A stretch of DNA of 64,000 bases from Stegostoma tigrinum (taxonomy: Eukaryota), in NCBI RefSeq assembly GCF_030684315.1, contig NC_081391.1, positions 13,245,342-13,309,341 on the forward strand. Reading direction: 5' to 3'. A program made the position numbers and the translations under genes. The notes beneath the pieces were generated by a model. The model saw only the letters and a list, made by a program, of their open reading frames with translations. It made no database searches and was not told where the DNA came from. Positions 1 through 51,631 of this stretch are shown here, piece after piece. Numbering within the stretch: the stretch's first letter is position 1; every line of letters begins with the position of its first letter.

Positions 1-655
1 ACCAGAGTTTGTTGGATCTACACCAACTCACCACAGCCCAGACTGACCCTCATGTAAGCGTCACCTCTTCATTCTCATCACTGCCATGCCTCTTCAACTT
101 CATTGGCTGGTCTTTGTGGAGTGAAAATTTGTAGATGTAACTTTGTCCAGATGCTACATTGTACCTTTGTCATCATAATTATGATGACAATGTTAAATTG
201 CTCAACACTGAACTGAAATAGGAATTTGGATTACCGTCTGGTGGGAATGCTGATGTGATTTTTGGCTGCTGAATTGGGGATTGTTGCACTATACAATACA
301 ACTTGGAGCTCTTTAAGAAGGTGAGATGGATCAGCTGAAGTGTCCTCACTGGCACAAATTCTCCAGGTGCTGGCTTGGTTTTTTTAGGACTGAGTGGGTA
401 TGGTGAAATGTTTTGCAGTGGGAATTCTGAAGTTGTCTTTAATAGTGATTGCAATTTCTCTCATGTTCTGTTGCAGCTGTGACTTCCTGGAGACTCACTA
501 TTTGGATGAGGAGGTGGAGATCATCAAGCAACTTGGGGATGGAGATCATCAAGCAACTTGGGGACTACATCACTGACCTGAAGCACCTGGGAGCCCCTGA
601 GAATGGGATGGGAGAGTACCTGTTTGACAGGCTCTCCCTGGAGGACAGCAGTTAG
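1..655 (+). pseudogene. Ferritin copy A (partial: end of exon 3 and exon 4), frameshifted pseudogene
   Basis: Exon 3 ends at 53 (..TDPH|gt). Exon 4 (477-655) starts CTGTGAC instead of CTGTGTGAC (2-bp deletion) and carries a 25-bp tandem duplication (tggagatcatcaagcaacttgggga), so the net frame is still shifted. AATAAA at 781-786. Confidence 0.88.
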
Positions 656-3655: not shown

Positions 3656-3843
3656 AGGTCAAAGGTCATTTCAGCAAAACCATCATCGACCAGTTGTCAA
3701 TTCTGATCGGTTTCTGGATCCAATTCCCATCCTGCACTGATTGGACGTGGCAACTGATCAATTGATTAACAAGAGTGATTGGCCATCACTGATGATGTCA
3801 TTTCCTGCTCAAAAAATGAGGGTCTTCTCCTGGAGTATAAATA
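3656..3843 (+). promoter_or_regulatory. Core promoter of ferritin copy B
   Basis: Perfect DR1 AGGTCAAAGGTCA 3656-3668, inverted CCAAT boxes (ATTGG 3740-3744 and 3778-3782), CRE-like TGATGTCA 3793-3800, ETS-like TTTCCTG, and TATAAATA 3836-3843 about 100 bp before the ATG. The block is conserved in all copies. Confidence 0.75.
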
Positions 3844-3938
3844 GACCCCAATGGAATTGCTATTTTAGGTGTAGCTGATTTTCTTTCTATATTTATAATT
3901 TGGTTTTGGTGGATAAGGAAAGCTGTTTCTATCACAAG

Positions 3939-6900
3939 ATGGCCTCCCAGATCAATCAGAACTATCACCAGGATTGTGAAGCTGCTGTCAACAAGCAGAT
4001 TAATGTGGAGCTCACTGCCTCCTATCTCTATCAGTCTTTGGTGAGTGCTGTCCCTGTGGGGTTGGAGTTACTTCTGTTATGAAGTGAACTGTTTTTTTTA
4101 AAACAAACTAGATTAACACTCTTGTAGACTTGTTTGTTTTTTTTATTGTATGTCTTACCTATTTCTTGATTCAGGGTAAATGTGATGACAATGGGATATG
4201 ATACTGATATGTAGCAACTGAGGCCCCAGTTGGCTCAATGATATATGGAGGGTGAAGCATCTTGTGATTTATCTTACAATTCCTTTTAGGGCTGTGATTG
4301 CTTATAACTGGCTGTGGCTCTCCATAATTTTCTAAACTGCTGTCAAGTTTCAAGGATCAAGATAACCATTGGCTAACTACCTTTTTAAATCTGTCTTGAT
4401 GTATCTGCTTTAATTTTGTGCATGTAAATAAACAAACATACTGGTTTTGGTATTTACAATAAGGTGTTGTGGTAATTTGACAAATCAGATTTTTTTTAAG
4501 CTGAACTGAAGTCCTTGAGGTAAGACAAGCTGCTCCCTGCTTAAGTAGGTCTCCTATGTTTTGGCTTTCTGTACCCTATCGTGAGGTGGGTTTGATCCAT
4601 CACTGCACAACCTGTAGAAAGTTGATTTGTTATAGGTGCCTGCCCCCTGCCCCCCCTCACCCCCACCCCCAAAGGGGGCTGCTAGAACATGCTGAGGCTC
4701 TTGACCCAGAAATGAATGTTATTCCTTGACCTTTTATCCAGAAAAAACAAACTGGCTCCTCCCACCAGGTGGTGGTGCCCCTGTGCCCTTCCAAGGGGTA
4801 GAATGTGTCCAGAAGGTGTTGAGGTCCCCTTGGTGAGTGCTGCAGGGGACCTGGTAGATAATGGACCCTGAAAGGAGGTGGTGAATACAGTCCCCTTGAA
4901 GTGGGCTGCTCTGTCCTGGATGGTGTCTACTTCTTGCACGTTGCAGCTCCACTTCTCCAGACACATGGAGAATATTCATCTCTCTCTGGGCTTGTGCCTA
5001 TTGGAAGGAAGTCCTCTCTGGGCACATGAGGATCAAGTCCCTATAACTACCTTTTTGGGAGGTGGGAATAGCTTTAACTGGTGAACCAATTGTTGGGTTT
5101 TGGTCACTGACCACTGTCCAAACTCAATAGGGAATCTTGTGTGCTGATAATAAAATCCCCACTATTCTACAACTTAACTACCCAATTAAACCACTTTTTT
5201 AAACTTTTTGCTTGTATTTGAGGATTAAACTAACTTCTCACCTGGATTCTACCCAGGAACAACTTCTTCTTCTTTTGAAGTCAATAGACTATTCCTAATC
5301 AGCAATAACTTGTTGGATTGTGAATCTCAGTTGAAAAGTGAGTGGGGAAAACAATAGTTTAGCCTCTTGGAATAAGCTAAATTGAGCTCTCCAGCTTTGA
5401 ACAAGTCAATAATCTATAGGTCACACAGTCCTGCAGATACCATTAGGTCTCCTGAACATTGGATCTTGTTTCAGTTGTGTATTTTTTTAATGCTTTGCTT
5501 TGCAAGCTTCTGGCAACCTGAGTGCATGGCATAAACAAATGTGATAAACTATTGCTGCAACAAGCCAAAGGCTGTCACTGGGCAGGCTCTCCTTTAGCAC
5601 CAAGATTCTCCTAATCGCCTTCATTCTCCTGCATACTGCCACCAGCTGCTCTTGTAGAGCTGATTTTATGGTTAATAAAATACAGTACATCTGATCCAAT
5701 TGGTTGCAGAAGACCTGTACCTATTCGCTATATTAATGTCCAGCATCTGCATGTTACTCTAGCACCAGGGGAGACATGTAATGACTTGAAGTTACCTGAC
5801 CCTGTGCACATCCTGCATTCCAGCTCCTGGCACTTGTTTAAACCCTATTCAGTTCCCACTTCCATCCAATGCTGGAGGCTAGATGACAGAAATGTGCATT
5901 CAGCTCTTCTATCTAGGCTGTGCCAGACCCACACCCCCAAACAATTCAGCAGGGTTTACAAACCAGAACACTGAATTTGCATCTTACGTGGAAGATGCTG
6001 GGGTTGTTTGGTTTCCTCCAATTAAAGGAGCTGCTGGCTAATTTTGCAACACCATTAGTGAACATTGTAAGGTGTCAACAATTTTCAACTGATTGAATGA
6101 ATCATTAGTTTGCTTTAGACTGAACCAGTCCTCCAGTTCTGAGCATGAGAAATGGGGTCAATGATGTGTTTAATGGGCTTTAACTTTTGTTCTCCCTTCC
6201 AGATGTCCTACTTTGACCGGGATGATGTTGCCCTCGCCCATGTCTCCCGGTTCTTCAAAGATCAGTCCCAGGAGAAACAGGAACATGCAGAGAAGCTGCT
6301 GAAACTCCAGAATCAGCGTGGAGGCAGAGTCCTCCTCCAGGATGTGAAGGTTGGAGTTGGGGAGGGGGGTGCTGGTGTGGTGTGCAGGAATGGCAGCTCA
6401 TGGTGTTTTCTGTCACTAGTGACAAGATTTTCATGTTGTGAAGGTTGGATTTGGAGAAGGCAGGCAGTGGGGAGGAGATGTGAGAAATGGCTGCTTACGG
6501 TGTGGTTTCATGTCCTGAAAGAAAGTGAAAACTGTTTTGTTTGGCTCCCCTCCTTTTGACTAAAAGGAAAGAAATCCTAGAAACAAGCCTCTTGGCTCCC
6601 CTCCACCTGCTGCTTCCCCAACCCCACCCCACCCCATGCTGAGCCGACAAGCACCAAACCACATTAATCCCATTTACTGCACTTGGTCTACAGCCCCCAT
6701 GGCATTGGTAGTTGTCTAGAAGCTGCTTAAATATTGCAGCAGTAGATGCCTCCCACACTGCCCCCCCCCCCCCCCCCCCGTGTCCCTGCCCACTGCCCCC
6801 ACCCCATGCATTATTTTTCCACTACCCTCTCGGCAAAGGATTCCTCTAACCTGCTGACTCCTCACATCAGTGCCCTCTGGTCTTAATGTCTCTTTCTCCC

Positions 6901-8594
6901 CACCCCCTCATAGCAGACACTCCCCATCTACTATCAAGACTCCACACTAATCAAATGCCATCACATAAACATCTCAACTGACTTCACTCTGAGGATTGGA
7001 GTGAGAAATCTAATCTCTCCTTTTAATGGATTTTTCAGCCTTGGGGCAATGTCCTGGTGACCCCTTCCAGTGCCATTGTGGCTCTGGTCACCACACAGTA
7101 TTCCACCTTTGCATGGCCAATGCTGCAAAGTTTGTGACAAGACTGGAGTCCCTGTACTGCGCCCCAAGAAATGGGGAAGGGCATTGTGGAAGCCATCTTC
7201 CCCATCCTGTCTACACTTATGGATCCTTGAAATATCTCTAGTCTTGTTCTCTTGGTTCCTTTATTGTCAACATATTGCTGTCCCTTCAATGAATTAAATA
7301 GTAGTGATGCTTTTGATCATTCAGGTCAGTCCGAGATGAAGCCATAAGCACAAGTGGGACTTCAACCTGGGCCTATGCTCCAAACCTAGGGACAGTACCA
7401 CTGCATAACAAGCCCTGGGATTAAGTTGTGAATATCCTCCTTGGGATGCCATCAGATGGGCACTGACAATTCTGTGCAAACATAACTCTTATCCCCACTA
7501 TGACCTGGTCGTGAATTGACTCTCCTTTCGGAAGAAGCAAATAGGGCTAAGTGAAAGAAATGTTAAATAACTGATCTGTTCTTCCATAGGGCTTCAGGGA
7601 TGGCAGTGGTTAGCACAACTGCATCAGTGCTTGGGGCACAAGCTTAATTCTGGAGTTGACATGTTCACCACATCTCTACATCGGCTTCCTCCCACAGTCC
7701 AAAGATGTGCAGGGTAGGATAGGGCATGAAAAATGCAGGATTACATGGCTGGGGCTAGGACCAGGTTGGATGCTCTTCAGATGGTCATGAGTGGGCAGAA
7801 TGGCCTGATGCATGCTGCAGGGATTTTGTTTCTGAGGCTTACCTGTCCTTCTTTGCATCCTCAGAAGCCAGAGAGGGATGAGTGGGGTAACAGTCTGCAG
7901 GCAATGCAGGTTGCCCTGGATCTGGAGAAGAATGTGAACCAGAGTTTGCTGCATCTACACCAACTCTCCACAGCCCAGACTGACCCTCATGTAAGCTTCA
8001 TCTCCTCCTCATTCTCATCTCTGCGAGACCCTCAGGGTAACACTTCATTGGTTGGTCTGTGTGGATTGGAAATTCACAGGTGTGCACTGATCACTTTGGG
8101 TCCATGCTGCTGAGCAGTTGTTACATGGTGATCAGTAATGAAGTGAAATGGGAGATTGGGAGTGATGAAGTGATATTGGCCACTGAATTCCCATTCTCAC
8201 TTGGGAGCATTACAGTGGAATGATCATTGTCCATCACCATCCAACTCAGCTCCACTTCACAAACAGCAAGATGGAGCAGCTGAAATCCTATTGTCCTCAC
8301 TGGCACAGATTTTCCAGGTGTTAGCTAAATTTTCAGGGCTGTATGGAACTAGTATGGTAAAGCCTGTTTTTCAGTGGGAATTCTGAAATTGTCTTGGATA
8401 GTGTTAATGCACCCAGTTGTCATATTCCTCTGTTACAGCTGTGTGACTTCCTGGAGACTCACTATTTGGATGAGGAGGTGGAGATCATCAAGCAACTCGG
8501 GGACTACATCACCAACCTGAAGCGCCTGGGAGCTCCTGAGAATGGGATGGGAGAGTACCTGTTTGACAGGCTCTCCCTGGAGGACAGCAGTTAG
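3939..8594 (+). CDS. Ferritin subunit (L/M-like, 176 aa), copy B, intact 4-exon gene
   Basis: Exons 3939-4040, 6203-6349, 7865-7990 and 8439-8594, all GT-AG. Protein [45 protein letters not shown]...[22 protein letters not shown]...[18 protein letters not shown]...[13 protein letters not shown] has the ferritin signatures and vertebrate intron positions. AATAAA at 8724-8729. Confidence 0.95.
4760..5090 (-). mobile_element. Old LINE (CR1/L2-like) ORF2 fragment in intron 1
   Basis: Minus translation [12 protein letters not shown] resembles a LINE ORF2 C-terminal segment. Orthologous copies are in D (~22080-22370), G (~48235-48560) and H (~58320-58620). Confidence 0.45.
7597..7815 (+). mobile_element. 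tRNA-derived SINE (HE1-like) in intron 2 of copy B
   Basis: gggatggcagtggttagcac... head and the V-domain-like ggcttcctcccacagtccaaagatgtgcagg. It sits at the same position in all copies. Confidence 0.6.
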
Positions 8595-11814: not shown

Positions 11815-11900
11815 GAGTCCCACGGGAGGGATGTTTATTGTTGCTTTTAACTTTGTCATTTTTGTGGTGAGGAAAATAAAGCAAGCGTTTCCTTTATAAG

Positions 11901-14900
11901 ATGGCCTCCCAGATCAGTCAGAACTATCACCAGGATTGTGAAGCTGCTGTCAACAAGCAGATCAATGTGGAGCTCACTGCCTCCTATCTCTATCAGTCTT
12001 TGGTGAGTGGTGTCTCTGTTGGGTGAAACATACTTCTGTTCTGTTGAAGTAACCTCTTCCCCTTGGATGTAATTAAGTTGTCTATCTTCTAGACTGAGTT
12101 TTGTGGCTCCTACCTCTTTCTCAATGCAGGATGAGTGTGATGTTACTGTAACAATAGTTTGGTGTCTAATGTTACTCTAACTTGGGTCCCAGTTGGTTGT
12201 CAGTGAGATGTGGAGGGTGGAGTGTTCTTGTAGTTACTTGCCTGTCCCATGATGGTGCTGTGACTGGTGGTAATTATCGCTTCCTGTGACTGTTTGTTTG
12301 AAACTTGAGGGAACAAAATTAAAAATGAATTGGGACTCACCATTGTGGGAACGGAAGCACCATCAGCTAGTCACTGCTTTTCTTTTCCCTCTTGTGTCCT
12401 TGTTTCTATTTGAATCTTGTGGGGATCTGAAGTAAACCTGCCAATTGATACTGAGAATCTTGGTTTCCTATTGCAATCAGCTTAGAATAGGCTTGTTCTA
12501 GCCCTACAGAGCGGGGCCGAGAGGTGGCAAATGGAGTTTAATGCAGCTAAGTGTGAGGTGATGCACTTTGGTAGGAGTAACTGGAAGGCTAAGTACAGCG
12601 CTAAGGGTAAGATTCTTGGTGGTGTAGATGAGCAGAGAGATCTGTTGATAGATAGACATGGATTGTTGAAAGTTGCCACCCAGGTTGACAGGGCAATTAA
12701 GGTAGTGTTTTGTTTTCTATTAATAGAAGACTGAGTTCTGGAACCAAGAGGTTATGGTGAAGCTGTACAAAACTCTGGTGCAGCTGCACTTGGAGTATTG
12801 CGTACAGTTCTGGTCACTGCATTATAAGGATGTGAAGCTTTGGAAAGGGTGTAGAGGAGATCTGCTAGGATGTTGCCTGGTATGGAGGGAAGATCTTATG
12901 AGGAAAGGCTGAGGGACTTGAGGCTCTCTTCATTAGAGAGAAGAAGGTTGAGAGGTGACTTAATTGAAAGATATAAAATAATCAGAGAGGGCTAGTTAGG
13001 GTGGATAGGGAGAGCCTTTTTCCTAGATGGTGATGGTGAGCATGAGGTGGGGTAGCTTTAAATTGAGGGCTGATAAATATAGGACAGATGTCAGAGGTAG
13101 TTTCTTTATTCAGTAAGGGAATGTAATGCTTTGCCTGTGACAGTAGTAGATTTGCCCACTTTAGGTACACTTAAGTCATCATTGGATAAGCAAATGGGCG
13201 TACATGGAATAGTGTAGGTTAGATGGGCTTGAGATCAGTATGACAAGTCGGCACAACATCAAGGGCTGAAGGGCCTGCACTTGGCTGTTATGTTCTATGC
13301 TCAGATTAAACTGGGTGAGGTTGTGACTCTTATCTGATTAAGCAGATCTCCATTTGAAATCTACCTTGCTTTTCTTCATACTCATGAGGTGGGTGTGGGC
13401 TGTCTGTATGTCAAGTGTTGGAGCTTTTCAAAGGCACAGCACTGCCATGGGGCTGAGAATGTACTGACCCAGTGACTCTGGTAAAAAGTTTATGCCCGTT
13501 GTATTTGGCCTGATTCTAAACTAACTGGCCCCTCTTTCCCCAGATGGGGTGCTTGTGCCCTTCCAAGGGGTAGAATGTGTTTAGAAGGTGTTTACGTAAC
13601 CTTAGTGTTTGTTGCAGGGTGCTCTCTGGGCTTGTCCCTGTCAGCAGGAAGTCCCCTCCTGATGAGGATCAAGCCCCTGTCAGCCCCACTTTGGGAGGGG
13701 GAACAGCTTTCATTGAGCCAGCAGTTGGGTTTTAATCACTGACCCATTGTCCCAACACACCTTGTAAGCATGTGCCAGGAATGAAATCCTTACTATTCTA
13801 CATCTTCTAACTGCACATTTAAATCGCAAAGATAAATTGTGCTTGTGTGTGCATTTGAGAATTGAAGCAACTTTTTTCAGCAGGATTTGTAAGAATGTGC
13901 TTGTTACTGGCTGCTTCCAATAGCAGACCCGTTAAACCTCAATACACTGAATTGTGAACATCCTGGTTTAGAAATCTACAGGACTTTGCCTGTTGGATTA
14001 AGTCAACAGTGGTTTTTCCAGGTTAATGAGGGATCTTGTCTGGAGAGTAGTTGATCTGCAGATCACTGTCATATTTGTCATGTGATCAGTTTGTTTTGTC
14101 AGTCTTTCTTTCATGTGTAATGGTACAAGTTGCTAGCAGTCTGAGTCAGTGCAGCTGTTTTAGATGCAGCAGTAAACTGTTGCAGTAACAATCCAAAGGC
14201 TGTCCTTAGGCAGGCTTTCCTTGGCAGATTCTTGGAGCTAACGTCCTTCATTCATCTCCTCATGCACCCGCAGGCACCCCTATACTGCAGTTCTTGTCAA
14301 ACTAATAGATACAGTGCATCCAATTGCATTGATCCTGACTAAGCAGAAAATGTGCTTCTTCCTAGCTGTTAATTGCAGTGTCTAGGATCTGTTTTCTGGT
14401 CTTTGCCAAAGCAGCAATACAGTGCCCTGCAGCTGTTCTATTGGTGTACATCCTGTGCTCCAGCCCCTGGCACTTCTTGAAACCCTGTTCAATCAAAGTT
14501 TTATCCCATTTCTGGTGGAGGTTAATCAGTAAAAACATCAATTCACACTTGTTCTCACCAAATGCTGTGCCAGACCCTCCTGGGCAAGTTGCCAGGAGTT
14601 TCAAACCAAAATAAAACACATGGTGTTTACAGCTTACCTGGAGGAAGCTGAGATTGTTTTGATTTTTCCAATTCAACAGCAACTGCTCCAAACTGGGTTC
14701 TGAATTGTTAATGCATCAGGTACTTAACAGCTTATTGTCAGTTTGATTTTGAGAATGCTCAAGTAGCCCTGTAGTTCTGAACTGAAATTGGACCATGACG
14801 TGTTAATGGACTTTACCGTGTTCTCCCTTCCAAATGTCCTACTTTGACCGGGATGATGTTGCCCTTCCCCATTTTTCCCAGTTCTTCAAACATCAGTCTC

Positions 14901-17096
14901 ACGAGAAGCGGGAACATGCAGAGAAGCTGTTGAAATTCCAGAATCAGCGTGGAGGCAGAGTCCTCCTCCAAGATGTGAAGGTTGGAGTTGGGTGGGGTGG
15001 GGAATGGGATGGTAATGGCTGCTCTTGTGGTGTGGTTTCAAGTCAGTGACAAGGTTTTCATTTGAGTCAAAACTTTGTTCAGCCTGATTGATCTCCTTTT
15101 TGAAGCCAGTGTGGAAAGAAGCCCTTTGGCCCACCATGTCTATGCTGACCCCACAAACACTAAACAACATTAATCCCACTTAGCTGCCCTTGGTCCACAG
15201 GCCACTGTCCTGGCACTAAGTACTTGTCCAGCTGGACCCTAAACTGATCTTGAGTCGCAGTTTCCACCACCATCCAACCCTTTATGTGGTTCATCTCATA
15301 TATTTCAAACAGCCCCTCAGAGGGGTGGGGGGTGGGGTCAAGTTTCCTCCAATCCCCTCTAACCTGCTTACTCCTCAAACCTGGTTTCTCTCCGGTGTTG
15401 GTGTCTGCCATGGGGAAGACATTCCATCAACTGGCCACTCTCTATTCTTCAATAGTTACATCAGGTCGCTCCCTCAGCCTTTCCTGCTCCTCAAAACCCC
15501 AGCCTACCTAACATCCAATCAATGGCTCTTGGGGAACCTCACCAGCATCCCCCCTGCATTGCCATCCTGTCCTTGTGACTGGTTAGGCCAAAGAGGCAAT
15601 GTGGTGACCAGAAAAACAAACTGAGGAGACTGGTCCCCTTCCTGTTCCACCCCCACCAAACTAATAGAGGTTGCTTGCCCTCTGTCACTGTTACACCCTG
15701 TTGACCTTGTCTGAACTTTGAGGGATCTATGGTTGTGGGCCTTTCTTAACTGTTAGCAGCACAACACACTTTGCAAACACCTCGCTGTCCCTTGGATGAA
15801 TTAAATAGCCGTGATGTTTCTGATCATCCTGCTCAGGCATGTATGAAGCCACCAGCACAAGTGGTACTTGAACCTTGGCCTTGTCAGCCAGAGACAGGGG
15901 CACTACCACTGTACCATGACAGCATTTAGGATTCACTCGTGAATATCCTCGCAATTCCATCAGATGGACCCTGATGCAAATCTTGTCATTATCCCCCACA
16001 ATGACCTGTTATTCAACTTCCTCCTTCAGATCAAGGACCGACAGGCAAGGTGAAAGCAATTCGAAGGAACTGTTCTTCAGCTGTGCTCCAGGGCTGCCTC
16101 AGGGGCTAGCAGTGTTCTCAGTGCTAGGGACACAGGTCTGGATCTGGCCTCTGGTGAGGGACTGGTGTTTACATGTCCTCCCCATGTCTGCATTGGTGTC
16201 CTCATAGGATAAGGGGATTGGCCATCTGAAATGCAGGGTTACAGGAATAGGGTGGGAGAATGACGAGTTGGGATCCTCTTCAGAGCAGTTACAGACTGAT
16301 CCACGTTGTAAAGATTCTGAAGCTTAACTGTCCAACTTTCCTTCCTCCAGAAGCCAGAGAGGGATGAGTGGGGTAACAGCCTGCAGGCAATGCAGGTTGC
16401 CCTGGATCTGGAGAAGAATGTGAACCAGAGTTTGTTGGATCTACACCAAGTCGCCACAGCCCAGACTGACCCTCATGTAAGCTTCACCTCCTCATTGACT
16501 TCACTGCTAGGCCCTCAGGGCAACACGTTCATTGGTTGGTCTTTTGTGGATTAGAAATTCAGTTAGACTTTGTTTTTGTGCAGATGACATGGATCACTTC
16601 AGATCCATAGTGATTACAAAATCATTGCTGAGCAGTTGAGTCCAAGTGTGTATTTTAACCTGTAAACCTGTGGGGAGGACTGAGGTGATATTGGTCACTG
16701 AATTCTCATTCAGGACCACTGCAGTGGAATGACTTTTATCCATCACAAGTTAACTCTGCTCCAGTAAATAAACAGCAAGATGAAACTGCTAAAAAGCAGT
16801 TGTCCTCTTTGCACAATTTCTCCAGGCGTTGGCTCGAGACATCCCTGACCATCTCCCTCCATATGCATGTTTTTCAGTGGGAATTCTGAAGTTGTCTTGG
16901 ATAGTGTTAATGTACCAAGTGTCATATTCCTCTGTTGCAGCTGTGTGACTTCCTGGAGACCGACTATTTGGATGAGGAGGTGAGGATCATCAAGCAACTC
17001 GGGGACGACATCACCAACCTGAAGCGCCTGGGAGCCCCTGAGAATGGGATGGGAGAGTACCTGTTTGACAGGCTCTCCCTGGAGGACAGCAGTTAG
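11901..17096 (+). pseudogene. Ferritin copy C, open exons but intron-1 acceptor mutated (probable pseudogene)
   Basis: Exons 11901-12002, 14834-14980, 16351-16476 and 16941-17096. The acceptor before exon 2 is ttcCAA|atg instead of CAG. Exon 4 has non-conservative changes (ETDY, VRII, GDDI). AATAAA at 17220-17225. Confidence 0.75.
12504..13299 (+). mobile_element. 5'-truncated CR1 LINE in intron 1 of copy C
   Basis: Translation [17 protein letters not shown]... is typical of CR1 ORF2, with a 3' tail ending in tgttctatg. Confidence 0.9.
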
Positions 17097-21434: not shown

Positions 21435-21467
21435 ATGCCCCAAGGACGTTATGTTTTTTTGTCTAGT

Positions 21468-21523
21468 TGATGTTGGTTATAAATTGGTCACTGATGTTGG
21501 TTATAAATTGGTCACTTATGTTG
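21468..21523 (+). repeat. 24-bp tandem repeat in the 5' UTR of copy D
   Basis: tgatgttggttataaattggtcac x2 plus a partial third unit. Confidence 0.85.
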
Positions 21524-21940
21524 TGAATAGAGTAAAACAAACTCCCCATCACAAGATGGCCTCCCAGATTAGTCAGAACTATCACCAGGATTGTGAAGCT
21601 GCTGTCAACAAGCAGATTCATGTGGAGCTCACTGCCTCCTATCTCTATCAGTCTTTGGTGAGTCTTGTCCCTAGGGGGTTAAAACTTGATCTATGTAGTT
21701 GCAGTAAATGGTTTCTCTTGAATTTAAATAACTGGACACTCTCTCTGGTCGACTGAGTTTTGTGGTCCTTTCCTAAATATTAATTCAGGATAAGGGCAAT
21801 GTTACTATACCAATGGGGTTTGATAATGATGTACTCTGAAGCTGGGTCCCAGTTGGCATTTGGAGATATGTGGAGGTTTAAGTGTCCCTGGAGATATTTG
21901 CCAGTTTTGATTGGCAGTAGATGTCATTCCCTCTAAGATT

Positions 21941-22075
21941 ACACAGCAGGCTGAGCAGGATGGCTGATGTTTTGGGGCTTGACCCTTCTGAAGGTGTGTC
22001 TAGGCCCAAAACATCAGCTTTCCTGCTCCTTTGCTTGGCCTGATGTGTTCATTCAGCTCTACATCATTGTATCTC
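21941..22075. mobile_element. Penelope-like element terminal remnant arranged as an inverted repeat
   Basis: Arms gagcagga..gctgatgttttgggg..gacccttc / gaagg..gtctaggcccaaaacatcagc..tcctgctc. This is the same sequence as the end of the Penelope element at 58806. Confidence 0.7.
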
Positions 22076-24697
22076 AAGGGGTAGAGTGTGTTTAGAAGTT
22101 GTGTTGAAGTAACCTTGGTGAGTGCTGCAGGGGACCTGGTAGATAATGGACCCTGAAAGGAGGTGGTGAATGCAGTCCCCATCAAGTGGGCTGCTCTGTC
22201 CTGGATGGTGTCTGCTTCTTGCATGTGGCAGCTCCACCTCCACAGACACATGGAGAAGCTTCATCACACTCGGCTTTTTTCTCTTAGAAAGAAGATGCCT
22301 CATGACAGATGGATGAAGCCTGTGTAAACTCCATTTGGGAGGTGGGTACAGCTTTCATTGGTGAGCTAGTTGATGGGTGTTAATTCCTGACCAGGGTCCC
22401 AATTCCCTTGGGGAACATGTGTGCCAATTCTAAAATCCTTCCTATTCTCTCCTGCCACAGCTTGTCCCTACCCCAATTAAACAGCCAAGAAATTTTGTTT
22501 GACTGCTTCTGCTTCAAGAAAGTAACTTCCCACCAGGTTTCCTCAACAACAAAACCCTTAGCTCCTGTTTCAAATATCAGAAGAATAGCCCTTCATAAAC
22601 CTCAAGGCATTGGATTGTGAATATCTCGGTTCGGAAGTGAGTCACATATGGGTGGACAAACAACAGAACGCTGCCTGCTGGAATAAGCCAAACTCTGGTG
22701 TCCAGCTTTGTGTTAACTAGTGATGTTAGATCAGCCGTTATCTGGAGGTACATGTCGCATTGGCCTGCTCCCCCTCTCCCTCTCCCCCCTGCGTGCTCTT
22801 GTGGTCATGTGACCCTTGTTTTCTCCCCCCCCGACCCCTTCTGGATGTGAGTGCACTAATTTTACTGTGCTATAAACTATAGCTGCAACAATCCAGAGGC
22901 TGTTACTGGGTAGGTTTTCCTTTGCACTATCTTGTTGTCGCTTTCTCTCATTCGCCTCTACTATATCTTGTAGTAATAAAATATACCGTACACTATCTCC
23001 CTGGTTTTGAGGCTGCAGAAACCTTGCTTCCTCCTAGTTATATTGTTACAGCAGTGTCTAACATGCATTTCCATGCCAGCCCCAAAGGAGCAATAGTGTT
23101 GCAGCTCCGCTACTCAACTATAGCCTGCACTCCAGCTCCTGGTGCTTGTTTCAGCTGTTTTTTAGGCTCTAAATTTGTCCAATTCAAATGAAGGTTAGTG
23201 AGTGAAAACATGGCTGGATGCAAGAAGAGCTATAATGCTGTGCCAGACAGCCTGAGCAATTCACTGTTTTAAGCCAAACTTTTGCCAGTTTCCAATAGGA
23301 AATTGGGATTGTTGTTAGTTCCCAGTTGAAGGATCTGCTGGCCAGCTGGATATCAGCGGATTCTCAACCATGTTCACATACCACGCAGTTAACAGCTAAC
23401 TGAGCAGGTAGCTTGCTGCAGAAGGCTGAACTAGAATTTGGAGTCAGTGCTGTGTTCAATGGGCTTTAACATGTTCTCTCCCTTCCAGATGACCTACTTT
23501 GACTGGGATGATGTGGCCCTCCCCCACTTCTCCCAGTTCTTCAAAGATCAGTCCCAGGTGAAGCAGGAACCTGCAGAGAAGCTGCTGAAATTCCAGAATC
23601 AGCGTGGAGGCAGAGGCTGAGTCCTCCTCCAGGATGTGAAGGTTGGAGTTGTGTGGGAGGGTTGCAGCTGTGGGGAAGAGAATGGCAGCTCTTGTGGTGC
23701 TGTTTCCTGTTGGGATGTAAAAATCCTCTTTTGGCCTGGCTTCCCTGTTTGATTTCTTTTGAAGGCAGTTTCTAAACTAGCCCTATTGTCCACCGTGTCT
23801 ATGCTGCCCACAAACCTCAAACTACATTAACACAATTTCCTTGCACTTAGTCCCCAGCCTACTATCTTCTGGCATGAAGAAGTTGTTGAGATTAGGCTTA
23901 AATGTTGCTGGAGTAACTTCCTCCACTGACCCCTCAGGTCATGCATCCCATACCTCTCCCACCCTCCATTATCCTCCAATCTCCTCAAACCTGTGCCATC
24001 TGGTCTTCATGTCTGCCACAGGGACTGTCTATTGTCCATGCTCCCTGATCTTCCACACTTCCATGAGATAACCATCCCAGTCTATCCAACCTCCCTCTCA
24101 TCATTGTTTTTTTTGTCAGTTTTCTTCCCCCATCTTGGGCCAACATCCTGATGACCCTCACCTGTACCCCCTCCAGTGTCACCCTGTCCCTCTGATTGTG
24201 GTTCTGGTCACCACACTACATTCCATCTTTGGTCTGGCCAATGCTGCCATGTTTATGGCAAGACTCATCCTTTTTACTGATCCCCAACTCCTGGAGACCA
24301 GCATCATGTCAGCCCCTTCCCCACTCTGTCTACCTTTGCTGAACCTTGAGGGATGGCCTTGGGCATTTGTTGCTTGTCCCTTTTACTGTAAGCACATTGC
24401 TGCTCCCTTCAATGAATTAAACAGCAGTGATGTCTGATCATCCTGCTCAGACATGTATGAAGCCACTGGCACAGGTGAGACATAGATGCCTGGCCTGCAA
24501 GGTCCAGATTGGTACTCTACCTCAAGAGCCCTTGAGACTAAGGTGTGAATGTCCTGATCTAAATGACAAATGGGCACTGGTGCAAACAGTTTAACTTTGT
24601 GTGAAATAAATCCCTGTCCCCACAATGACTTCATGCTTCAGATCAAGGATAAATGGAGCAAAGTGAAGTCACCTACAAGTCATCAATGTGGGTTTTA

Positions 24698-24935
24698 GGG
24701 GTGGCACAGTTGCTCAGTGGTTAGCACTGCTGCCTCAGTGCCAGGGACACAGGTTTAGCTCTGGCCTCTGGTGACTGGTGCTGACATGATCAGTTTCTTC
24801 CTACAGTCCAAATATGGGCAGGCTGGGTGAAGTAGCTGTGGGGGAAATGCAGGGCTATGGGATCAGGTAAATCTGAGATCTGCTTCAGAAGGTTGATTGC
24901 AGACTCAATGGGCTGAATGGCCTGCTCCCATGCTG
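24698..24935 (+). mobile_element. tRNA-derived SINE (HE1-like) in intron 2 of copy D
   Basis: Head ggggtggcacagttgctcagtggttagcactgctgcctcagtgccagggac, and a CR1-like 3' end gggctgaatggcct. Confidence 0.75.
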
Positions 24936-27900
24936 CAGGAAGTCTGATTCTGAGGCTTAACTGTTCTTCTTTCCCCCCTCCAGAAGCCAGAGAGGGATGA
25001 GTAGGGTAACAGCCTGCAGGCAATGCAAGTTCTCCTGGATCTGGAGAAGAACGTGAACCAGAGTTTGTTGGATCTACCCCAACTCGCCACAGCCCAGACT
25101 GACCCTCATGTAAGCTTCACCTCTTCATTCTCACCACTGCCATGCCTCCTCAACTTCATTGGTTGATCTTTGTGGAGTGGAAAGTCACAGACGTAACTCT
25201 GTCCAGATGCTACATTGTCATCATAATTATGTTATTAAGGTACAATGTTACAACTGCTCAACACTGAACTGAAATAGGAATTTGGATTACAGTCTAGTGG
25301 GAATGCTGATGTGATTTTTGGCTGCTGAATTGGGGATTGTTGCACTATACAATACAACTTGGAGCTCTTTCAGAAGGTGAGATGGATCAGCTGAAATGTT
25401 GTCGTCACTGGCATCAATTCTCCACCTGGTAGCTAGATTTTCAGGGCTGTCTAGAGCTAGTTATGGCTAAGGGTTTTTCAGTGGGAATTATGAAATTGTC
25501 TTGGACAGTGTTAATGCACTCAGTTGTCATCTTCCTCTGTTGCAGCTGAGACTTCCTGGAGACTCACTATTTGGATGAGGAGGTGGAGATCATCAAGCAA
25601 CTGGGTGACTACATCACCAACCTGAAGCACCTGGGAGCCCCTGAGAATGGGATGGAAGAGTACCTGTTTGACAGGCTCTCCCTGGAGGACAGCAGTTAGT
25701 GTGGCCTGGAGCACTGTCTACTTGGTCTGAATGCATGCCCCACTTCACCCTGGCCAACCTGTCTCCTTCCAAGGAGAAGGGACTTGGAGCAAAGAATGTA
25801 ATGGCTGTACCAGCTGAATGGGAATGAATAAAATGATGTGTTGATCTTGCTTATTGTCCATCATTCAGAGAACTGGGTGGTGTCTCTCGAGAGCTTGAAG
25901 CCTGTAATCTTTCTGTAGTTTGATTGGCTGGTCCAATTACAATTGGACATGAGACTAATTCACTGGGTCTTTTGACAATTTCCCCACCTCACTGGTCAGG
26001 GATAATGAGATGGAGTGCCTCCTTTGTGTGAAACAAGATATTCCCCTCCCACCAGAATTTGAGGTTGTGGTTTGATGCTGTTGGCCGAGAAAACGTTTTC
26101 GACAATGACTAGCATACTGTTGGATGTGGTGTGCACAATTGTAGTTAACAGAACGTGGAATTCCTTTTGCAAAAGCAACTTCCCACACCTTTTATCAAAA
26201 GCTAGGACCAGGCCCCAACATTCTGCAAATTAGGGAAATTTTAACTTGTACATGGATAAGGCATGGAAAAATTAACGTTAAATACCTTTCCTCATCAGCC
26301 TCCCTGAACAGTACCTTACACTCCAAGTGACAGAAATCACAATTTGACGACAAAACTAACTAATCTGCTGGCTGGATCAGCTCAGCCGAAGGAGGTGAGA
26401 TATCGGGATGTGTTTCCTTGCCAGGGGCAGGAACCAGCTCTTTGGGAGAGGATACCACTTCAGCTGGTCTGCTATTCATTGTGACTCGGGCCCTAACATG
26501 ACGTGACGAGTATATTCTATTCTCAGTTCTCAGCATTGTTGTCTCCTTTGTTTCTGTTACTTTTTTCTTTACACCCCCCTCCCCCACAACCATGTGTGCA
26601 GCCCAACAGCGTTGGGTGCTGGTAAAGGGTCAAACCAGGACCAGCAGTCAAGGTGGTGGGGGGTGGGGTGCCACGTGCCACTCTCTAAAACCCATTCACC
26701 CTTCCCTTGTTACACGTCTCCACCAGTTGGCAATGCTCACCAGTTGATTCCTCCTTCAGTCTGAGTTACCACACGGTGACACTTCAGGGGATTTTATATC
26801 CACTTCAGCTCCAAAAGGAGTCAATGCCCATGGTTGCTGGGGGCAGTATGCGCAGAAGCAATCCCAATTTGTCCGAATGTGGCTCCCTTATTCCACTTTC
26901 TTTCCCTATCCTTGCACTTACTCTACCGCTTCATCCAAGGAAAAATTTTCAAGCCTACCACCCCCAAGACCTGGGAAAGTGCAGCCCAAATTTTCACAGC
27001 AGCCTCTATCAGACAGTCAGCTCACATTCACCTGAGCTGTATGGGCGTATAATGCCTGCTCTTGATGCCACCCACAGTGGCAGTGTCTTGAGCATAGCAT
27101 AGCACAGCAGCGCTCCTGGTTAAATGTTGCCATTTGATTGGCTCTTGCTGCTAAAGCCTGCATTGAGCGCACTAAGCTGCTCCTTTGGTTCCTCTGAGCT
27201 TCCCCCACGGTGAGCGTTACTCCTGATGCAGGTTAATTGGGTGAAATCACATTGAAGGAGCAGTGTGACTCGGAGAGGAGACCTGGAGATGCTGATTTTC
27301 CTGTCCCCCTGCTTCCCTTATCTTTCGAGGGGTCAGAGATCCTGGGTTAGGGAGGGGGCTATCAGAGACATCCTGAGGATTGTTCCAGGGAGTTTTGTAG
27401 CGAGTGCACACTGCAGCCTGCATGAGGGTGTGGGTCTTTAAGGCACTGAGCGTGTTTGTTCCTCCACAGAGAGCAGTTTAATTGCAGCAAATTGAAGTCT
27501 TGGCTGGAGAATCCCAATAGTGCAGCAAGAGGATATTAGGCCCATTAAATCTGCATCGACCCACTGAACCACATCCTGCTCAGACCCAACCCATTTGCTT
27601 AACCCCACGGACAATCGAATTACCTTGGATGCGCATTGTCACTATGGGGCTATTTAGTATTACCAACCCACCTACCCTGCAAATCATTGGGCTGTGTGAA
27701 GAAACTCAAGCACCTGGAGGAAATCCACGCAGGCCATCAGCCAGGGGTAGAATCGAACCTGGGTCCCTGGCACTGAGGCGCCAAAACATTCTAAAGTACC
27801 AAAGGGAAGGAATGCACTGTGGCAAACTACGTCATGGGAATAGACTCTGCAGCCCAGCCCGAACTTGCAGACCAGGTTTTCATAAACTGTGCAGTGCCAT

Positions 27901-29270: not shown

Positions 29271-29356
29271 GAGTCCCAGGGCAGGGATGTTTATTGTTGT
29301 TCTTAACTTTGTTATTTTTGTGGTGTGGAAACTAAAGCAAGCTTTTCCTTTATATG

Positions 29357-32300
29357 ATGGCATCCCAGATCATGCAGAACTATCACCAGGATTGTGAAGC
29401 TGCTGTCAACAAGCAGATTAATGTGGAGCTCACTGCCTCCTATCTCTATCAGTCTTTGGTGAGTGGAGTCTCTGTTGGGTGAAACATACTTCTGTTCTGT
29501 TGAAGTGAACTCTACCCCTTGGATGTAATTAAGTTGTCTATCTTATAGACTGAGTTTTGTGGCTCCTACCTCTTTCTCAATGCAGGATGAGTGTGATGTT
29601 ACTGTAACAATAGTTTGGTGTCCAATGTTACTCTAACTTGGGTCCCAGTTGGTTGTCAGTGAGATGTGGAGTGTTCTTGTAGTTACTTGCCTGTCCCATG
29701 ATGGTGCTGTGACTGGTGGTAATTATAGCTTCCTGTGGCTGTTTGAAACTTGAGGGAACTAATTTAAAAATGAATTGGGACTAACCATTGTGGGAATGGA
29801 AGCACCATCAGCTAGTCACTGCTCTTCTTTTCCTTCTTGTATCCTTGCTTGTATTTGAATTTTGTGGTGATCCCAACTTAACATCTCAAATAATCTTGAG
29901 AATCTTGATTTCCTATTGCAATCAGCTTAGAATAGGCTTGTTCTAGCCCTACAGAGCTGGGCTGAGAGGTGGCAAATGGAGTTTAATGCAGACAAGTGTG
30001 AGGTGATGCACTTTGGTAGGAGTAACCGGAAGGCAAAGCACGAGGCTAATGGTAAGATTCTTAGTAATGTAGATGAGCAGAGAGATCTCGGTGTCCACGT
30101 AAACAGGTCCTTGAAAGTTGCCATCCAGGTTGACAGGGCGGTTAAGAAGGCAGTGTTTTCTCTTTGATTAATAGAGGCATTGAGTTCTGGAACCAAGAGG
30201 TTATGGTGAAGCTGTACCAAACTCTGGTGTGGCTGCACTTGTAGTATTGTATACAGTTCTGGTCACTGCATTATAAGGATGTGGAAGCTTTGGCAAGAGT
30301 GCAGAGGAGGTTTACTAGGATGTTGCCTGGTATCGAGGGAAGCTCTTATGAGGGAAGACTGAGGGACTTGAGGCTGTCTTCATTGGTGAGAAGGTTGAGA
30401 GTTGACTTAATTGAAACATATAATATTCTGAGGGTTGGAAAGGGAAATCCTCTTTCTGCGGACGGTGAGCATGAGGGGGCATAGCTGTAAATTGAGGGAT
30501 GATAGATATAGGACAGATGTCTGAGGTAGTTTCTTTACTCAGTAGTAAGGGAATGGAATGCTTTGCCTGTGACGGTAGTAGATTTGCCAACTTTAGGTAC
30601 ATTTAAGTCGTCATTGGACAAGCATATGGACGTACAGGGAATAGTCTAGGTTAGATGGGCTTGAGATCAGTATGACAAGTTGACACAACATCTAGGGCCT
30701 GTACTGTGCTGTTATGTTCTAGTTTCAGATTAAACTGGGTGAGGTTGTGACTGGTATCTGATCAAGCAGATCTCCATTTGAGATCTACTTTGCTTTTTTT
30801 CATACTCATGAGGTGGGTGTGGGCTGTCTGTATATGAAGTGTTGGAGCTTTTCCAAGGCACGGCACTGCCGTGGGGCTGAGAATGTGCGGAGGGTACTGA
30901 CCCAGTGAATATGGAAAAAATAGCTTATTCCTGTTGTATTTGGCCTGACTCTAACTAGCCCCTCTTTCCCCAGGTGGTTGGGTGCCTGTGCCCTTCCAAG
31001 GGGTAGAATGTGTTTAGAAGGTGTTAGAAGTAACCTTAGTGAGTGTTGCCGGGTGCTCTCTGGGCTTGTGCTTGTCAGCAGGAAGTCCTGTCATGATGAG
31101 GATCAAGTCCCTGTCAGCCCCACTTTGGGAGGTGGCAACAGCTTTCATTGAGCCACCAGTTCAGTTTTAATCGCTGACCCATGTTCCTAACACAACTTGG
31201 AAGCATGTCCCAAGAGTAAAATCTCCACTATTCTACATCTTCTAACTGCCCATTTAAATGGGCAATGATAAATTGTGCTTGTGTTTGCATTTGACAATTA
31301 AAGCAACTTTTTTCAGCAGGATTCCCAAGAATGTGTGTCTTAGTAGCTGCTTCCAATAGCAGACCTGGTAAACCTGAATACATTGAATTGTGAACATCCT
31401 GGTTTAGAAATCTACAGGACTTTGCCTGTTGGATTAAGTCAACAGTAGCATTTCCACGTTACTGTTTTAATAAGTGATGTTGTCTAGAGAGTAGGTGATC
31501 TGCAGGTCACTGTCATATTTGTCATGTGATCAGTTTGTTTTGTCAATCATTGTTTCATGTGTAATGGTACAAGTTGCTAGCAGTCTCAGTACAGCTGTTT
31601 TAGTTGCAGCAGTAAACTGTATCTAGAACAATCCAAAGACTGTCCCGAGGCAGGCTTTCCTTGGCAGATTCTTGGTGCCCATGTCCTTCATTCATCCCTT
31701 CCCCCTCACCCCAGCCACCCCACTACTGCAGCCCTTGTCAACCTAATACAGTGCATCCAATTGCATTGATCCTGACTAAGCAGAAAATGTGCTCCTTCCT
31801 AGCTGTTAGTTGCAGTGATGGGATCTGTTTTCTGGCCTTTGCCAAAGGAGCAATAGCGTGCCCTGCAGCTGTTCTATTGGTGCACATCCTGCATTCCAGC
31901 TTCTGGCATTTCTTGAAACCCTATTCAATCAGTAATTTATCCCATTTCTGGTGGAGGTTAATCAGTAAAAACATCAATTCACACTTGTTCTCACCCAATG
32001 CTGTGCCAGACCCACTGAGCAATTTGCCAGGAGTTTCAAACCAAAATAAAACACATGGTGTTTACAGCTTACCTGGAGGAAGCTGGGATTGTTTTGATTT
32101 TTCCAATTCAACAGGAACTGCTCAAAACTGGGTTCTGAATTGTTAATGCATCAGGTACTTAACAGCTTATTGTCAGTCTGATTTTTAGAATGCTCAAGTA
32201 GCCCTGGAGCTCTGAACTAAAATTGGCCCGTGACTTGTTAATGGGCTTTACCTTGATCTCCCTTCCAGATGTCCTACTTTGACCGGGATGATGTTGCCCT

Positions 32301-34530
32301 CCCCCATGTCTCCCGCTTCTTCAAACATCAGTCCCAGGAGAAGCGGGAACATGCAGAGAAGCTGCTGAAATTCCAGAATCAGCGTGGAGGCCGGGTCCTC
32401 CTCCAGGATGTGAAGGTTGGAGTTGGGTGGGGTGGGGGTTGGGATGGTAATGGCTGCTCTTGTGGTGTGGTTTCAAGTCAGTGACAAGATTTTCATTTGA
32501 GTCAAAACTTTGTTCGGCCTGTTTGATCTCCTTTTTGAAGCCAGTGTAGAAAGAAGCCCTTTGGCCCACCATGTCTTTGCTGACCCCCCCAAACACTAAA
32601 GCACATTAATCCCATTTATCTTCCCTTGGTCCACAGGCCACTGTCCTGGCACTATGTACTTGTCCAGCTGGACCTTAAACTGATCTGGAGTAGCTGACTC
32701 CACCACCATCCAACCCTTTATGTGGTTCATCTCATATTTCTAACCTCCCCCTCGGAGGAGGGTGAAGAGAACGTTTCCTCCAATCCCCTCTAACCTGCTT
32801 ACTCCACAAACCTGGTTTCTCTCTGGTCTTGCTGTCTGCCATGGGGAAGACATTCCATCAACTGGCCACTCTCTATTCTTCAATAGTTACATCAGGTCAC
32901 TCCCTCAGCCGTTCCTGCTCCACAGAAAATCCCAGCCTATCTAACCTCCAATCAATGGATCTTGGGCAACAGCCTGGGGAACCTCACCAGCTTCCCCCTG
33001 CAGTGCCATCCTGTCCTTGTGACTGGTGAGGCCAAAGAGGGAATAATGTGGTGACTAGAAGAACAAACTGTGACAAGACTGGCCCCCTTCCTGTTCCACC
33101 ACACCCAACTAATAGAGGTTGCTTGCCCTCTGTCACTGTTACACCCTGTTGACCTTGTCTGAACTTTGAGGGATCTATGGTTTTGGGCCTTTCTTAACTG
33201 TTAGCAGCACAACACACTTTGCAAACACCTCGCTGTCCCTTGGATGAATTAAATAGCCGTGATGTTTCTGATCATCCTGCTCAGGCATGTATGAAGCCAC
33301 CAGCACAAGTGGTACTTGAACCTTGGCCTTGTCAGCCAGAGACAGGGGCACTACCACTGTACCATGACAGCATTTAGGATTCACTCGTGAATATCCTCGC
33401 AATTCCATCAGATGGACCCTGATGCAAATCTTGTCATTATCCCCCACAATGACCTGTTATTCAACTTCCTCCTTCAGATCAAGGACCGACAGGCAAGGTG
33501 AAAGCAATTCTGAAGGAACTGTTCTTCAGCTGTGCTCCAGGGCTCCCTCAGGGGCTAGCAGTGTTCTCAGTGCTAGGGACGCAGGTTTTGATCTGGCCTC
33601 TGGTGAGGGACTGGTGTTTACATGTCCTCCCCATGTCTGCGTTGGTGTCCTCATAGTATAAGAGGATTGGCCATCTGAAATGCAGGGTTACAGGAATAGA
33701 GGGGGAGTGGGATGAGCTGGGATGCATTTCAGAGCAGTTCTGCACTGATCGATGTTGTAGAGATTCTGAAGCTTCACTTTCCTTCTTTCCATCCTCAGAA
33801 GCCAGAGAGGGATGAGTGGGGTAACAGCCTGCAGGCGATGCAGGTTGCCCTGGATCTGGAGAAGAATGTGAACCAGAGTTTGCTGGATCTTCACCAACTT
33901 GCCACAGCCCAGACTGACCCTCATGTAAGCTTCACCACTTCATTCTCTTCACTGCTGGTCACTCAGGGCAACACCTTCAATGGTTGGTCTTTTGTGGATT
34001 AGAAGTTGCCTGCTGTCTCAGACAAGTACCATTTGGATCTCTTCAGATCTGTACCAATGCTTATAATCTGATCAGCTCAGCAATCAAGTAAAATGGGAAT
34101 TTGGATTATAATCTAGTAGGAGTGATGAAGTGATATTGGCCACTGAATGCTCATCCAGGATTATTGCAGTGGAATGATCACTATCCATCATAATCCAACA
34201 CAGCATCACTTAACAAACTGCAAGAGCAGTTGAAATACATGGTCCTCACTGGCATAGTCTCCAGGTGTTAGGTTTTCAGGGTAGTCTCGAGCTCATATGG
34301 CTGAGTGTTTTGCAGTAGGAAATCTGAGGTTGTCTTGGATAGCATTAATGTAGCAAGTTGTCATATTCTTGCAGCTGTGTGACTTCCTGGAGACTCACTA
34401 TTTGGATGAGGAGGTGGAGATCATCAAGCAACTCGGGGACTACATCACCAACCTGAAGCGCCTGGGAGCCCCTGAGAATGGGATGGGAGAGTACCTGTTT
34501 GACAGGCTCTCCCTGGAGGACAGCAGTTAG
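29357..34530 (+). CDS. Ferritin subunit (L/M-like, 176 aa), copy E, intact 4-exon gene
   Basis: Exons 29357-29458, 32269-32415, 33799-33924 and 34375-34530, GT-AG and with no stops. An extra in-frame ATG lies at 29354. AATAAA at 34660-34665. Confidence 0.93.
29949..30721 (+). mobile_element. 5'-truncated CR1 LINE in intron 1 of copy E
   Basis: [17 protein letters not shown] and [12 protein letters not shown] translations. Same insertion site as in C and F. Confidence 0.9.
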
Positions 34531-37767: not shown

Positions 37768-37853
37768 GAGTCCCACGGGAGGGATGTTTACTGTTGCTCT
37801 TAACTTTGTCATTTTTCTGGGGAGGAAAATAAAGCAAGTGTTTCCTTTACGAG

Positions 37854-47382: not shown

Positions 47383-47468
47383 CGAGTCCCACGGGAATGA
47401 TGTTGATTGTTCTTCCTAATTTTGTTATTTTGGTGGTGAGGAGAATAAAAGAAATTTATTGTCACAAG

Positions 47469-50400: not shown

Positions 50401-51631
50401 CCCCACAGCCCGTGGGATTCACTCCTGAATATCCTTTTTAAGACTCCAGCTGATGGACACTGGTGCAAATGACTAATCTGGTACATATTTATTCCCTGTG
50501 GTACAAGGATACGTTCCTGAGCTTCCGGCTTCAGGTCAAGGATAAATGGGGCAAGGTGAAAGGAGTCACCAAGTAGCTAATGCTTTCTTTATCTGGACTT
50601 CAGGGATGGCACAGTGGCTCAGTGGTTGGCACTGTTGACACAGTGCCAGGGGCACCAGTTTGGTTCTGGCCTGTGACGAGAATTTAAACGTTATCCCAAA
50701 GCATGGCTTCCCCACGCAGTAGAAAAGAGGATTGGCAACTTGAAATGCAGGTTACACGAACAGGGTGGGAATGGGACCAGATGGGATGCTCTTCAGCAGT
50801 TATGGTCTCAATGGGGTGAATGGCCAGCTCCCATGCTGCAGGGATTCTGTTTCTGAAGCTTACCTGTCCTTCTCTCCATCCCCAGAAGCCAGAGAGGGAT
50901 GAGTGGGGTAACAGCCTGCAGGCAATGCAGGTTGCCCTGGATCTGGAGAAGAATGTGAACCAGAGTTTGCTGGATCTACACCAACTCGCCACAGCCCAGA
51001 CTGACCCTCATGTAAGCTTCACCTCCTCATTCACATCACTGCTAGACTCTCAGGGTCATGTTTCATTGGTTGGTCTGTGTGGATTGGAAATTCACTGATG
51101 TAACACTTTCCATCCATTACTTTCCTGAACTATTGTAACATTGATCACTTGGGATCATACTGATTACAATGAGTTAAAAGGGGAATTTGATCTCTAATCT
51201 AGTGGAAGTGCTGAAATGACGTTGGCCATTGAGTTCTTCATTCGTATCATTGCAGTGGAATGATCATTGTCCATCACAATCCAACTCAGCTCCATTTCAC
51301 AAACAGCAAGATGGAGCAGCTGACATGTTGTCCTCACTGGCACAAATTCTCCAGGTGTTAGCTCGCTTTTCAGGGCTGTCCAGAGCTAGTCATGGCTAAG
51401 TCTGTCTTGCAGTGGGAATTCTGAAATTGTCTTGGATAGTATAAATGTACCAAGTGTCATATTCCTCTGTTGCAGCTGTGTGACTTCCTGGAGACTCACT
51501 ATTTGGATGAGGAGGTGGAGATCATCAAGCAACTCGGGGACTACATCACCAACCTGAAGCGCCTGGGAGCCCCTGAGAATGGGATGGGAGAGTACCTGTT
51601 TGACAGGCTCTCCCTGGAGGACAGCAGTTAG
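47469..51631 (+). CDS. Ferritin subunit (L/M-like, 176 aa), copy G, intact 4-exon gene
   Basis: Exons 47469-47570, 49333-49479, 50886-51011 and 51476-51631, GT-AG and with no stops. The polyA signal is the variant AATGAA (51750), with ATTAAA at 51798. Confidence 0.94.
50603..50838 (+). mobile_element. tRNA-derived SINE (HE1-like) in intron 2 of copy G
   Basis: Head gggatggcacagtggctcagtggttggcactg with an A-box-like motif. Confidence 0.7.

Follow-up and report, generated by a model that had tools for sequence, protein, structure and literature searches.

The iron-responsive element (IRE) of ferritin mRNAs is a textbook case of translational control. It ties ferritin synthesis to iron, and because a heavy ferritin output lowers free iron, such synthesis would repress itself. 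The H and M chains of fish keep the ferritin IRE. The M ferritins of fish and amphibians and the small Fth clusters share the four-exon layout of the genes described below and occur in 4–14 tandem copies (PMC4117605, PMC13003380, PMC10746142). These smaller tandem clusters were described in snailfish, newt, frog and mouse, and the 14 copies of snailfish fthl27 are expressed in most tissues (PMC10746142). In sharks, a Greenland shark preprint describes 155 copies labeled 'FTL' and 179 labeled 'FTH1', syntenic with the white shark, and its largest ferritin cluster shows ovary-specific expression (bioRxiv 10.1101/2024.09.09.611499). The words 'iron' and 'UTR' are absent from the main text of this preprint, whose supplements may bear on the IRE (bioRxiv 10.1101/2024.09.09.611499), and ferritin is not mentioned in a second Greenland shark preprint. 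In the literature covered, with most subscription journals lying outside it, we found no description of a shark ferritin that has lost its IRE or its ferroxidase function. The shark array and its ovary-specific expression are already known; the loss of the IRE and of ferroxidase residues is what is new here.

Ferritins outside IRE control have been found in other lineages. FTMT is a vertebrate ferritin outside IRE/IRP control (PMC7760355), the yolk ferritins of the snails Lymnaea and Biomphalaria are IRE-less and linked to eggs (PMC10799875), and Schistosoma ferritins are IRE-independent according to a title cited in PMC1488847. A preliminary description of the present locus, made from its sequence, implied that a ferritin lacking an IRE is more of a rarity than FTMT and the snail yolk ferritin show it to be. 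Another relevant system is mammalian FTHL17 (mouse Fthl17), which is expressed in the germ line or the early embryo (PMC7760355, PMC2887969).

The window analyzed here is a 64-kb stretch of Stegostoma tigrinum DNA, in which six-frame motif searches and splice-site mapping revealed eight tandem ferritin genes, all on the + strand and ~8-10 kb apart:

1..655, + strand: copy A, 3' part only; exon 4 with a 2-nt deletion and a 25-nt duplication (515-564), making it a pseudogene
3939..8594, + strand: copy B, intact 176-aa ferritin; exons 3939-4040, 6203-6349, 7865-7990 and 8439-8594; K62 codon at 6275-6277 and polyA signal at 8724
11901..17096, + strand: copy C, open frame; intron-1 acceptor CAA, probably splice-defective
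21556..25699, + strand: copy D, pseudogene; stop codons in exons 2 and 3, deletion in exon 4
29357..34530, + strand: copy E, intact ferritin; exons 29357-29458, 32269-32415, 33799-33924 and 34375-34530
37854..43026, + strand: copy F, intact ferritin; exons 37854-37955, 40754-40900, 42281-42406 and 42871-43026
47469..51631, + strand: copy G, intact ferritin; exons 47469-47570, 49333-49479, 50886-51011 and 51476-51631
56737..62021, + strand: copy H, pseudogene or poorly assembled; start codon CTG, intron-2 donor TT, 2-nt deletion in exon 4

Copies B, E, F and G are intact, with four exons, GT-AG introns and a 176-aa frame; copy C has a damaged splice acceptor, and A, D and H are broken. Among named proteins, the closest to them are those of the zebra shark Stegostoma tigrinum itself: copy E is 100% identical to P0010 in exon 2 and 99% over the whole protein, and P0010 matches the Pfam ferritin domain PF00210 with an E-value of 6.7e-36. 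With this domain and a four-exon, three-intron gene, the copies have the features of an animal ferritin. The dN/dS ratio is 0.18-0.38 in all ten pairs of window copies, and the array genes are under purifying selection. The leader of copy H is disrupted by two N gaps (56819-57098 and 57221-57410) and a C-rich repeat. The repeat is tandem (57099-57504, between the two gaps) and is either a real insertion or an assembly problem. A reverse-transcriptase fragment lies upstream of copy G (45904-46596; Pfam RVT_1, E 3.4e-12) and another upstream of copy D (20045-20437), the latter with a near-identical translation and no Pfam match; the upstream DNA of G and D is near-identical between the two.

The TATA box and the start codon of copies B to G are separated by short spacers:

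3844..3938, + strand: copy B spacer (95 nt), T-rich and IRE-free; folding no better than shuffles (z -0.26)
11815..11900, + strand: copy C spacer (86 nt), IRE-free
21435..21555, + strand: copy D spacer (121 nt), IRE-free, with a 24-nt tandem duplication at 21468-21523
29271..29356, + strand: copy E spacer (86 nt), IRE-free; the 3' end reads ATG-ATG and the start codon has no preceding AG acceptor
37768..37853, + strand: copy F spacer (86 nt), IRE-free
47384..47468, + strand: copy G spacer (85 nt), IRE-free

The preliminary description had presented these stretches as T-rich, 85-120 nt long, poorly conserved, free of a CAGUGN loop and belonging to complete 5' UTRs, with copy H interrupted by the gap. 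Our measurements agree on length (85-121 nt) and T content (0.34-0.42), CAGWG is absent from the TATA-to-ATG spacers of all seven copies, and the interruption of H corresponds to the two N gaps. The term 'complete 5' UTR' is to be corrected, since the stretches are TATA-to-ATG spacers rather than mapped UTRs; besides, D and H are broken genes, and the intron-1 acceptor of C reads CAA. Transcription of copy B would start near 3864-3868, and the true 5' UTR is probably ~60-75 nt, judging from the usual TATA spacing. Poor conservation is found on average (mean leader identity of 0.70 versus 0.89 in the promoter and 0.96 in the CDS) and is not found among the leaders of C, E and F, which are 82-89% alike. 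In the ~66 nt before 11901, 29357 and 37854, 13/66 columns vary among these three copies versus 87/1387 in the flanking non-coding DNA (Fisher p=3e-4), in a region that was picked post hoc and with one intron bin being equally variable (19/66); this may stem from gene conversion acting in patches or from selection on translation. None of the six leaders is structured (folding z -0.85 to +1.11). An intron within the leader, formed by the T-rich tract and an AG, was ruled out, with copy E having no AG and the others AAG or GAG.

The search for an IRE was extended to the entire window. In an Rfam scan no match reached the gathering score and no IRE family was among the six matches at E<=10. A SIREs-style scan of the 64 kb, covering motifs 1-2 with one mismatch or one 3' bulge by the rules given in PMC2896125 (without individual coding of its 16 SELEX loops), gave no sense-strand match and three antisense matches, which lie at or just above the 0-2 per strand of 30 shuffles and can be attributed to chance. 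From the TATA box to ATG+40, a C-bulge hairpin with any hexaloop is absent in all seven copies. A covariance model trained on three real ferritin IREs and run unfiltered reached at most 11.5 bits (E 0.89) in the window, with no sense-strand match in a promoter or leader; its held-out control, whose IRE is identical to a training row, scored 60.5 bits. A decayed IRE remnant was ruled out, as none was detected by this model. The CAGWGH loop, 5-bp stem and C bulge in the 5' UTR that define an IRE-regulated ferritin (RF00037) are not found here, and the earlier remark that no ferritin-type IRE exists elsewhere in the window is borne out by Rfam, the SIREs-style scan and the covariance model on the sense strand. 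As the intergenic DNA in the window is IRE-free, an ordinary upstream exon with an IRE is largely excluded for copies B-G.

Positive controls for Rfam came from a pattern scan of prokaryote assemblies, in which five loci were found. Four of them are contaminant vertebrate ferritin cDNAs, typed by translation as one fish H, two rodent H and one rodent L, and score 53-57 bits for IRE_I versus a gathering score of 34; the fifth sits in a bacterial ORF and fails IRE_I. A metagenome scan gave five distant non-shark ferritins with no IRE match, which are of no use as controls, and a viral scan gave no loci. The vertebrate ferritin cDNA or protein sequences in records of Fredinandcohnia, Paracoccus, Algimonas, Aeromonas and Salmonella (L006, L007, L008, L010, P0036 and P0208) indicate database contamination.

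Upstream of the spacers the copies share a compact promoter:

3656..3668, + strand: copy B DR1 element of the nuclear-receptor type, perfect, 180 nt before the TATA box
11626, 21247, 29082, 37579, 47196 and 56556, + strand: DR1 in the other promoters, at the same position throughout
3737..3744, + strand: copy B inverted CCAAT box, ~100 nt before the TATA box, common to all seven promoters
3836..3843, + strand: copy B TATA box; the others start at 11807, 21427, 29263, 37760, 47376 and 56737

The 200 nt before the TATA box are 89% identical among five copies; identity is lower in the DNA beyond them (0.76) and in intron 1 (0.73), and reaches 0.96 in the CDS. DR1 is found in all seven promoters (four perfect, three with one mismatch), against a shuffle mean of 0.69 and none of 100 shuffles reaching seven; the copies being duplicates, these seven matches count as one ancestral site. 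The fixed position and near-perfect sequence of DR1 speak for a function. DR1 elements are bound by HNF4, PPAR/RXR, COUP-TF and TR2/4. At the other end of the transcript, a cytoplasmic polyadenylation element (CPE) is absent from all eight 3' UTRs, and for this reason the array transcripts do not look like typical stored maternal mRNAs.

Contigs from three presumed RNA runs of related organisms, none of them annotated as RNA or carrying a tissue label, join the predicted exons exactly at GT..AG, junction 1 in two of the three runs and junctions 2 and 3 in all. A lack of cover over promoter bins in these runs is given no weight here. One of these contigs (X1 record 1) is 95.5% identical to the window (16 of 358 aligned letters differ), its nine exon-2 differences spare Lys 62, and ~116 nt 5' of the ATG position are unaligned, exceeding the predicted UTR of 60-75 nt. 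In a contig of the DNA-like run X5 (window 7990-8440, a single row), a single letter separates exon 3 from exon 4. This contig may derive from a processed retrocopy, and germ-line expression would then be implied.

Analysis of the protein sequences indicates that the ferroxidase centre is altered. The 176-aa protein has no signal peptide and aligns from 1 to 176 without gaps to a solved M subunit, M subunits being the closest solved structures, which confirms the residue register. Instead of the H/M-type centre, all five translatable copies carry K62 and E141 (E62K and Q141E, H-chain numbering), and all five keep E27, Y34, E61, H65, E107 and the channel residues D131 and E134. Q141E, like E62K, impairs the ferroxidase site. 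In FTHL17, E62K is reported to be enough by itself to eliminate ferroxidase activity (PMC7760355), and the six residues of the centre are E27, E61, E62, H65, E107 and Q141 (PMC4117605). From these residues, the window subunits probably oxidize iron poorly alone. The L-chain cavity positions are Q or H at 60 and D or H at 57, so that the nucleation residues are only partly L-like. In the K62-clade proteins P0026, P0040, P0150 and P0165 of other sharks H65 is also lost (R, Y or C), pointing to a continuing erosion of the ferroxidase site.

Many ferritin paralogs per shark, of K62 and E62 types, are found on equal-sized contigs in several sharks; in Stegostoma the K62 type, the E62 type and a single-copy ferritin are recorded on equal-sized contigs (26,869,179). 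Two Chiloscyllium members of the K62 cluster (P0166 and P0178) are on much larger contigs than the main array and are possible dispersed copies. We built a tree of 85 rows, selected by hand among 306 fetched proteins and the five window copies; in it the 26 shark K62 rows all group in a single clade (UFBoot 100) with members from Heptranchias, Heterodontus, Mustelus, Scyliorhinus, Cetorhinus, Carcharodon and carpet sharks. K62 is fixed across the six shark orders in this tree, and E141 is common to all 14 carpet-shark rows. The sister of the K62 clade is a second array with mostly intact ferroxidase centres, in which one chimaera and one ray sequence also fall (support 97). When columns 62 and 141 were removed, a 41-row tree kept the K62 clade (100/99) and the sister grouping (93/90). 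Among the listed matches that were aligned there is no ray or chimaera K62 row, which is no evidence of absence.

With eight copies in 64 kb and both K62 and E62 paralogs, the locus resembles the mega-cluster of Greenland and white sharks, which is also a large ancient tandem array with two subunit classes (bioRxiv 10.1101/2024.09.09.611499). The two very probably represent the same locus family, orthology being deduced indirectly because no Greenland shark sequence is among the named matches. That report labels the copies FTL and FTH1; the L-like class of the window is IRE-less, bears K62 and does not group with rodent FTL. Tetrapod L does share K62 and E141, as seen in the rodent L; it has an IRE, a non-Glu residue at 27, G65 and E57/E60, whereas the shark copies keep E27 and H65 and do not have the carboxylate set E57, E60, E61 and E64 of the L cavity. 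The rodent L is placed with tetrapod M/L, and a joint clade with K62 is rejected (AU p=0.025), at moderate strength only since L was represented by one partial sequence on a long branch and the model, LG+G4, is a simple one. By this test, K62 and E141 of the sharks and of the L chain are likely to be convergent. FTHL17 and its mouse homolog share E62K and tandem copies with the shark genes (PMC7760355, PMC2887969). Unlike FTHL17, the shark genes keep E61 and three introns, add E141 and are of a different lineage, FTHL17 being outside our trees. FTHL17 is intronless. The snail yolk ferritin is likewise without an IRE and, unlike the shark proteins, has a signal peptide and a 42-aa insertion (PMC10799875), while FTMT differs in being intronless, mitochondrial and ferroxidase-active (PMC7760355). 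All five salmon H and M isoforms described keep the IRE and a full ferroxidase centre, unlike the shark copies, and IRE loss is for this reason the parsimonious reading for the latter.

The preliminary description concluded that these genes escaped iron-dependent translational repression and have a non-canonical role. In silico there is good support for an escape from IRE/IRP repression, and as a whole this reading is partly supported; the non-canonical role gains support from E62K, Q141E and the published ovary-specific expression of the shark cluster. These ferritins are probably produced in large amounts following a tissue schedule, perhaps in eggs, and not in response to iron demand. On balance, and with modest confidence, we favor a shark-wide IRE-free L-like ferritin subfamily that is driven by transcription and helps to stock iron in eggs. 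Egg iron provisioning is our best reading because it brings together the L-like K62 partners, the active co-amplified subunits and the ovary expression in another shark. In such a mechanism the compact TATA/CCAAT/DR1 promoter would drive a short IRE-less leader, and ferritin output would be set by transcription and gene dosage rather than by iron. Without an IRE, IRP1/2 would be unable to stop translation even as abundant ferritin drains free iron, and IRE loss together with gene multiplication behind a conserved promoter may allow cages to be built ahead of demand. The K62 subunits would act as L-like partners that co-assemble with the ferroxidase-intact subunits of the sister array, and the heteropolymers may stock ovary or oocyte iron for the embryo. 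A bolder form of the idea, which we put forward tentatively and with some doubt, is an independent shark 'egg ferritin', in which a convergent L-like chain (K62, then E141) and its active partner were amplified by dozens, both IRE-free and nuclear-receptor-driven, stockpiling oocyte iron for months of development. Against an egg function, no CPE is found in the eight 3' UTRs, the nucleation residues are only partly L-like and four of the eight copies are damaged; DR1 also suits liver or gut factors.

It is also conceivable, yet unlikely, that the proteins left iron storage for a bulk or regulatory germ-line role, as proposed for mammalian FTHL17, so that iron became irrelevant and the IRE was lost. 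Mouse Fthl17 has the same E62K and tandem multiplication, the nucleation residue 60 is lost and the gonad-restricted pattern of the published shark cluster fits; however, E27, Y34, E61, H65, E107, D131 and E134 are kept in all five copies, and the co-amplified ferroxidase-intact array adjoins. The perfect DR1 in four of the seven promoters can be read differently, as a sign of somatic ferritins (in liver, gut, yolk sac or immune tissue) under nuclear-receptor or stress control, providing iron-independent storage or antioxidant capacity like snailfish fthl27, whose 14 copies are active in most tissues (PMC10746142). The spliced contigs of three runs without tissue labels would agree with this, but the sole report found on expression of a shark array describes it as ovary-specific and a ferroxidase-poor subunit would be a weak antioxidant alone, which makes this decidedly unlikely.

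We consider it very improbable that the family merely drifts by birth and death, with the IRE and ferroxidase losses as neutral decay without special function. Three of the eight copies are broken, one more has a damaged acceptor and the leaders diverge rapidly, as expected from decay; yet dN/dS is 0.18-0.38, all six shark orders of the tree have K62 fixed, and introns are much less conserved than promoter and CDS, even if gene conversion could homogenize exons. Least credible of all is the presence of an IRE in the mRNAs, whether encoded by a distant upstream exon, divided by a splice junction or in the form of a non-canonical SELEX-type hairpin. The unmapped transcription start, the ~116-nt unaligned 5' extension in a relative's contig and the 16 SELEX loops of SIREs that were not coded individually leave some room for it. 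The sense strand, however, holds no canonical IRE and no remnant by the unfiltered model, no any-hexaloop C-bulge hairpin lies between TATA and ATG+40 in the seven copies, the conserved TATA and CCAAT boxes are directly upstream, and the ATG of copy E has no preceding AG.

If the favored reading of an IRE-free, L-like egg ferritin subfamily is true, these intron-containing vertebrate ferritins, without the IRE and a ferroxidase residue and under purifying selection across sharks, would represent an L-like chain that arose independently. The same reading also suggests that the labels 'FTL' and 'FTH1' on shark arrays mislead, including in arguments on longevity and ferroptosis that are built on copy number. 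For the biology of sharks, it would offer a testable answer to how iron is supplied to their large eggs.
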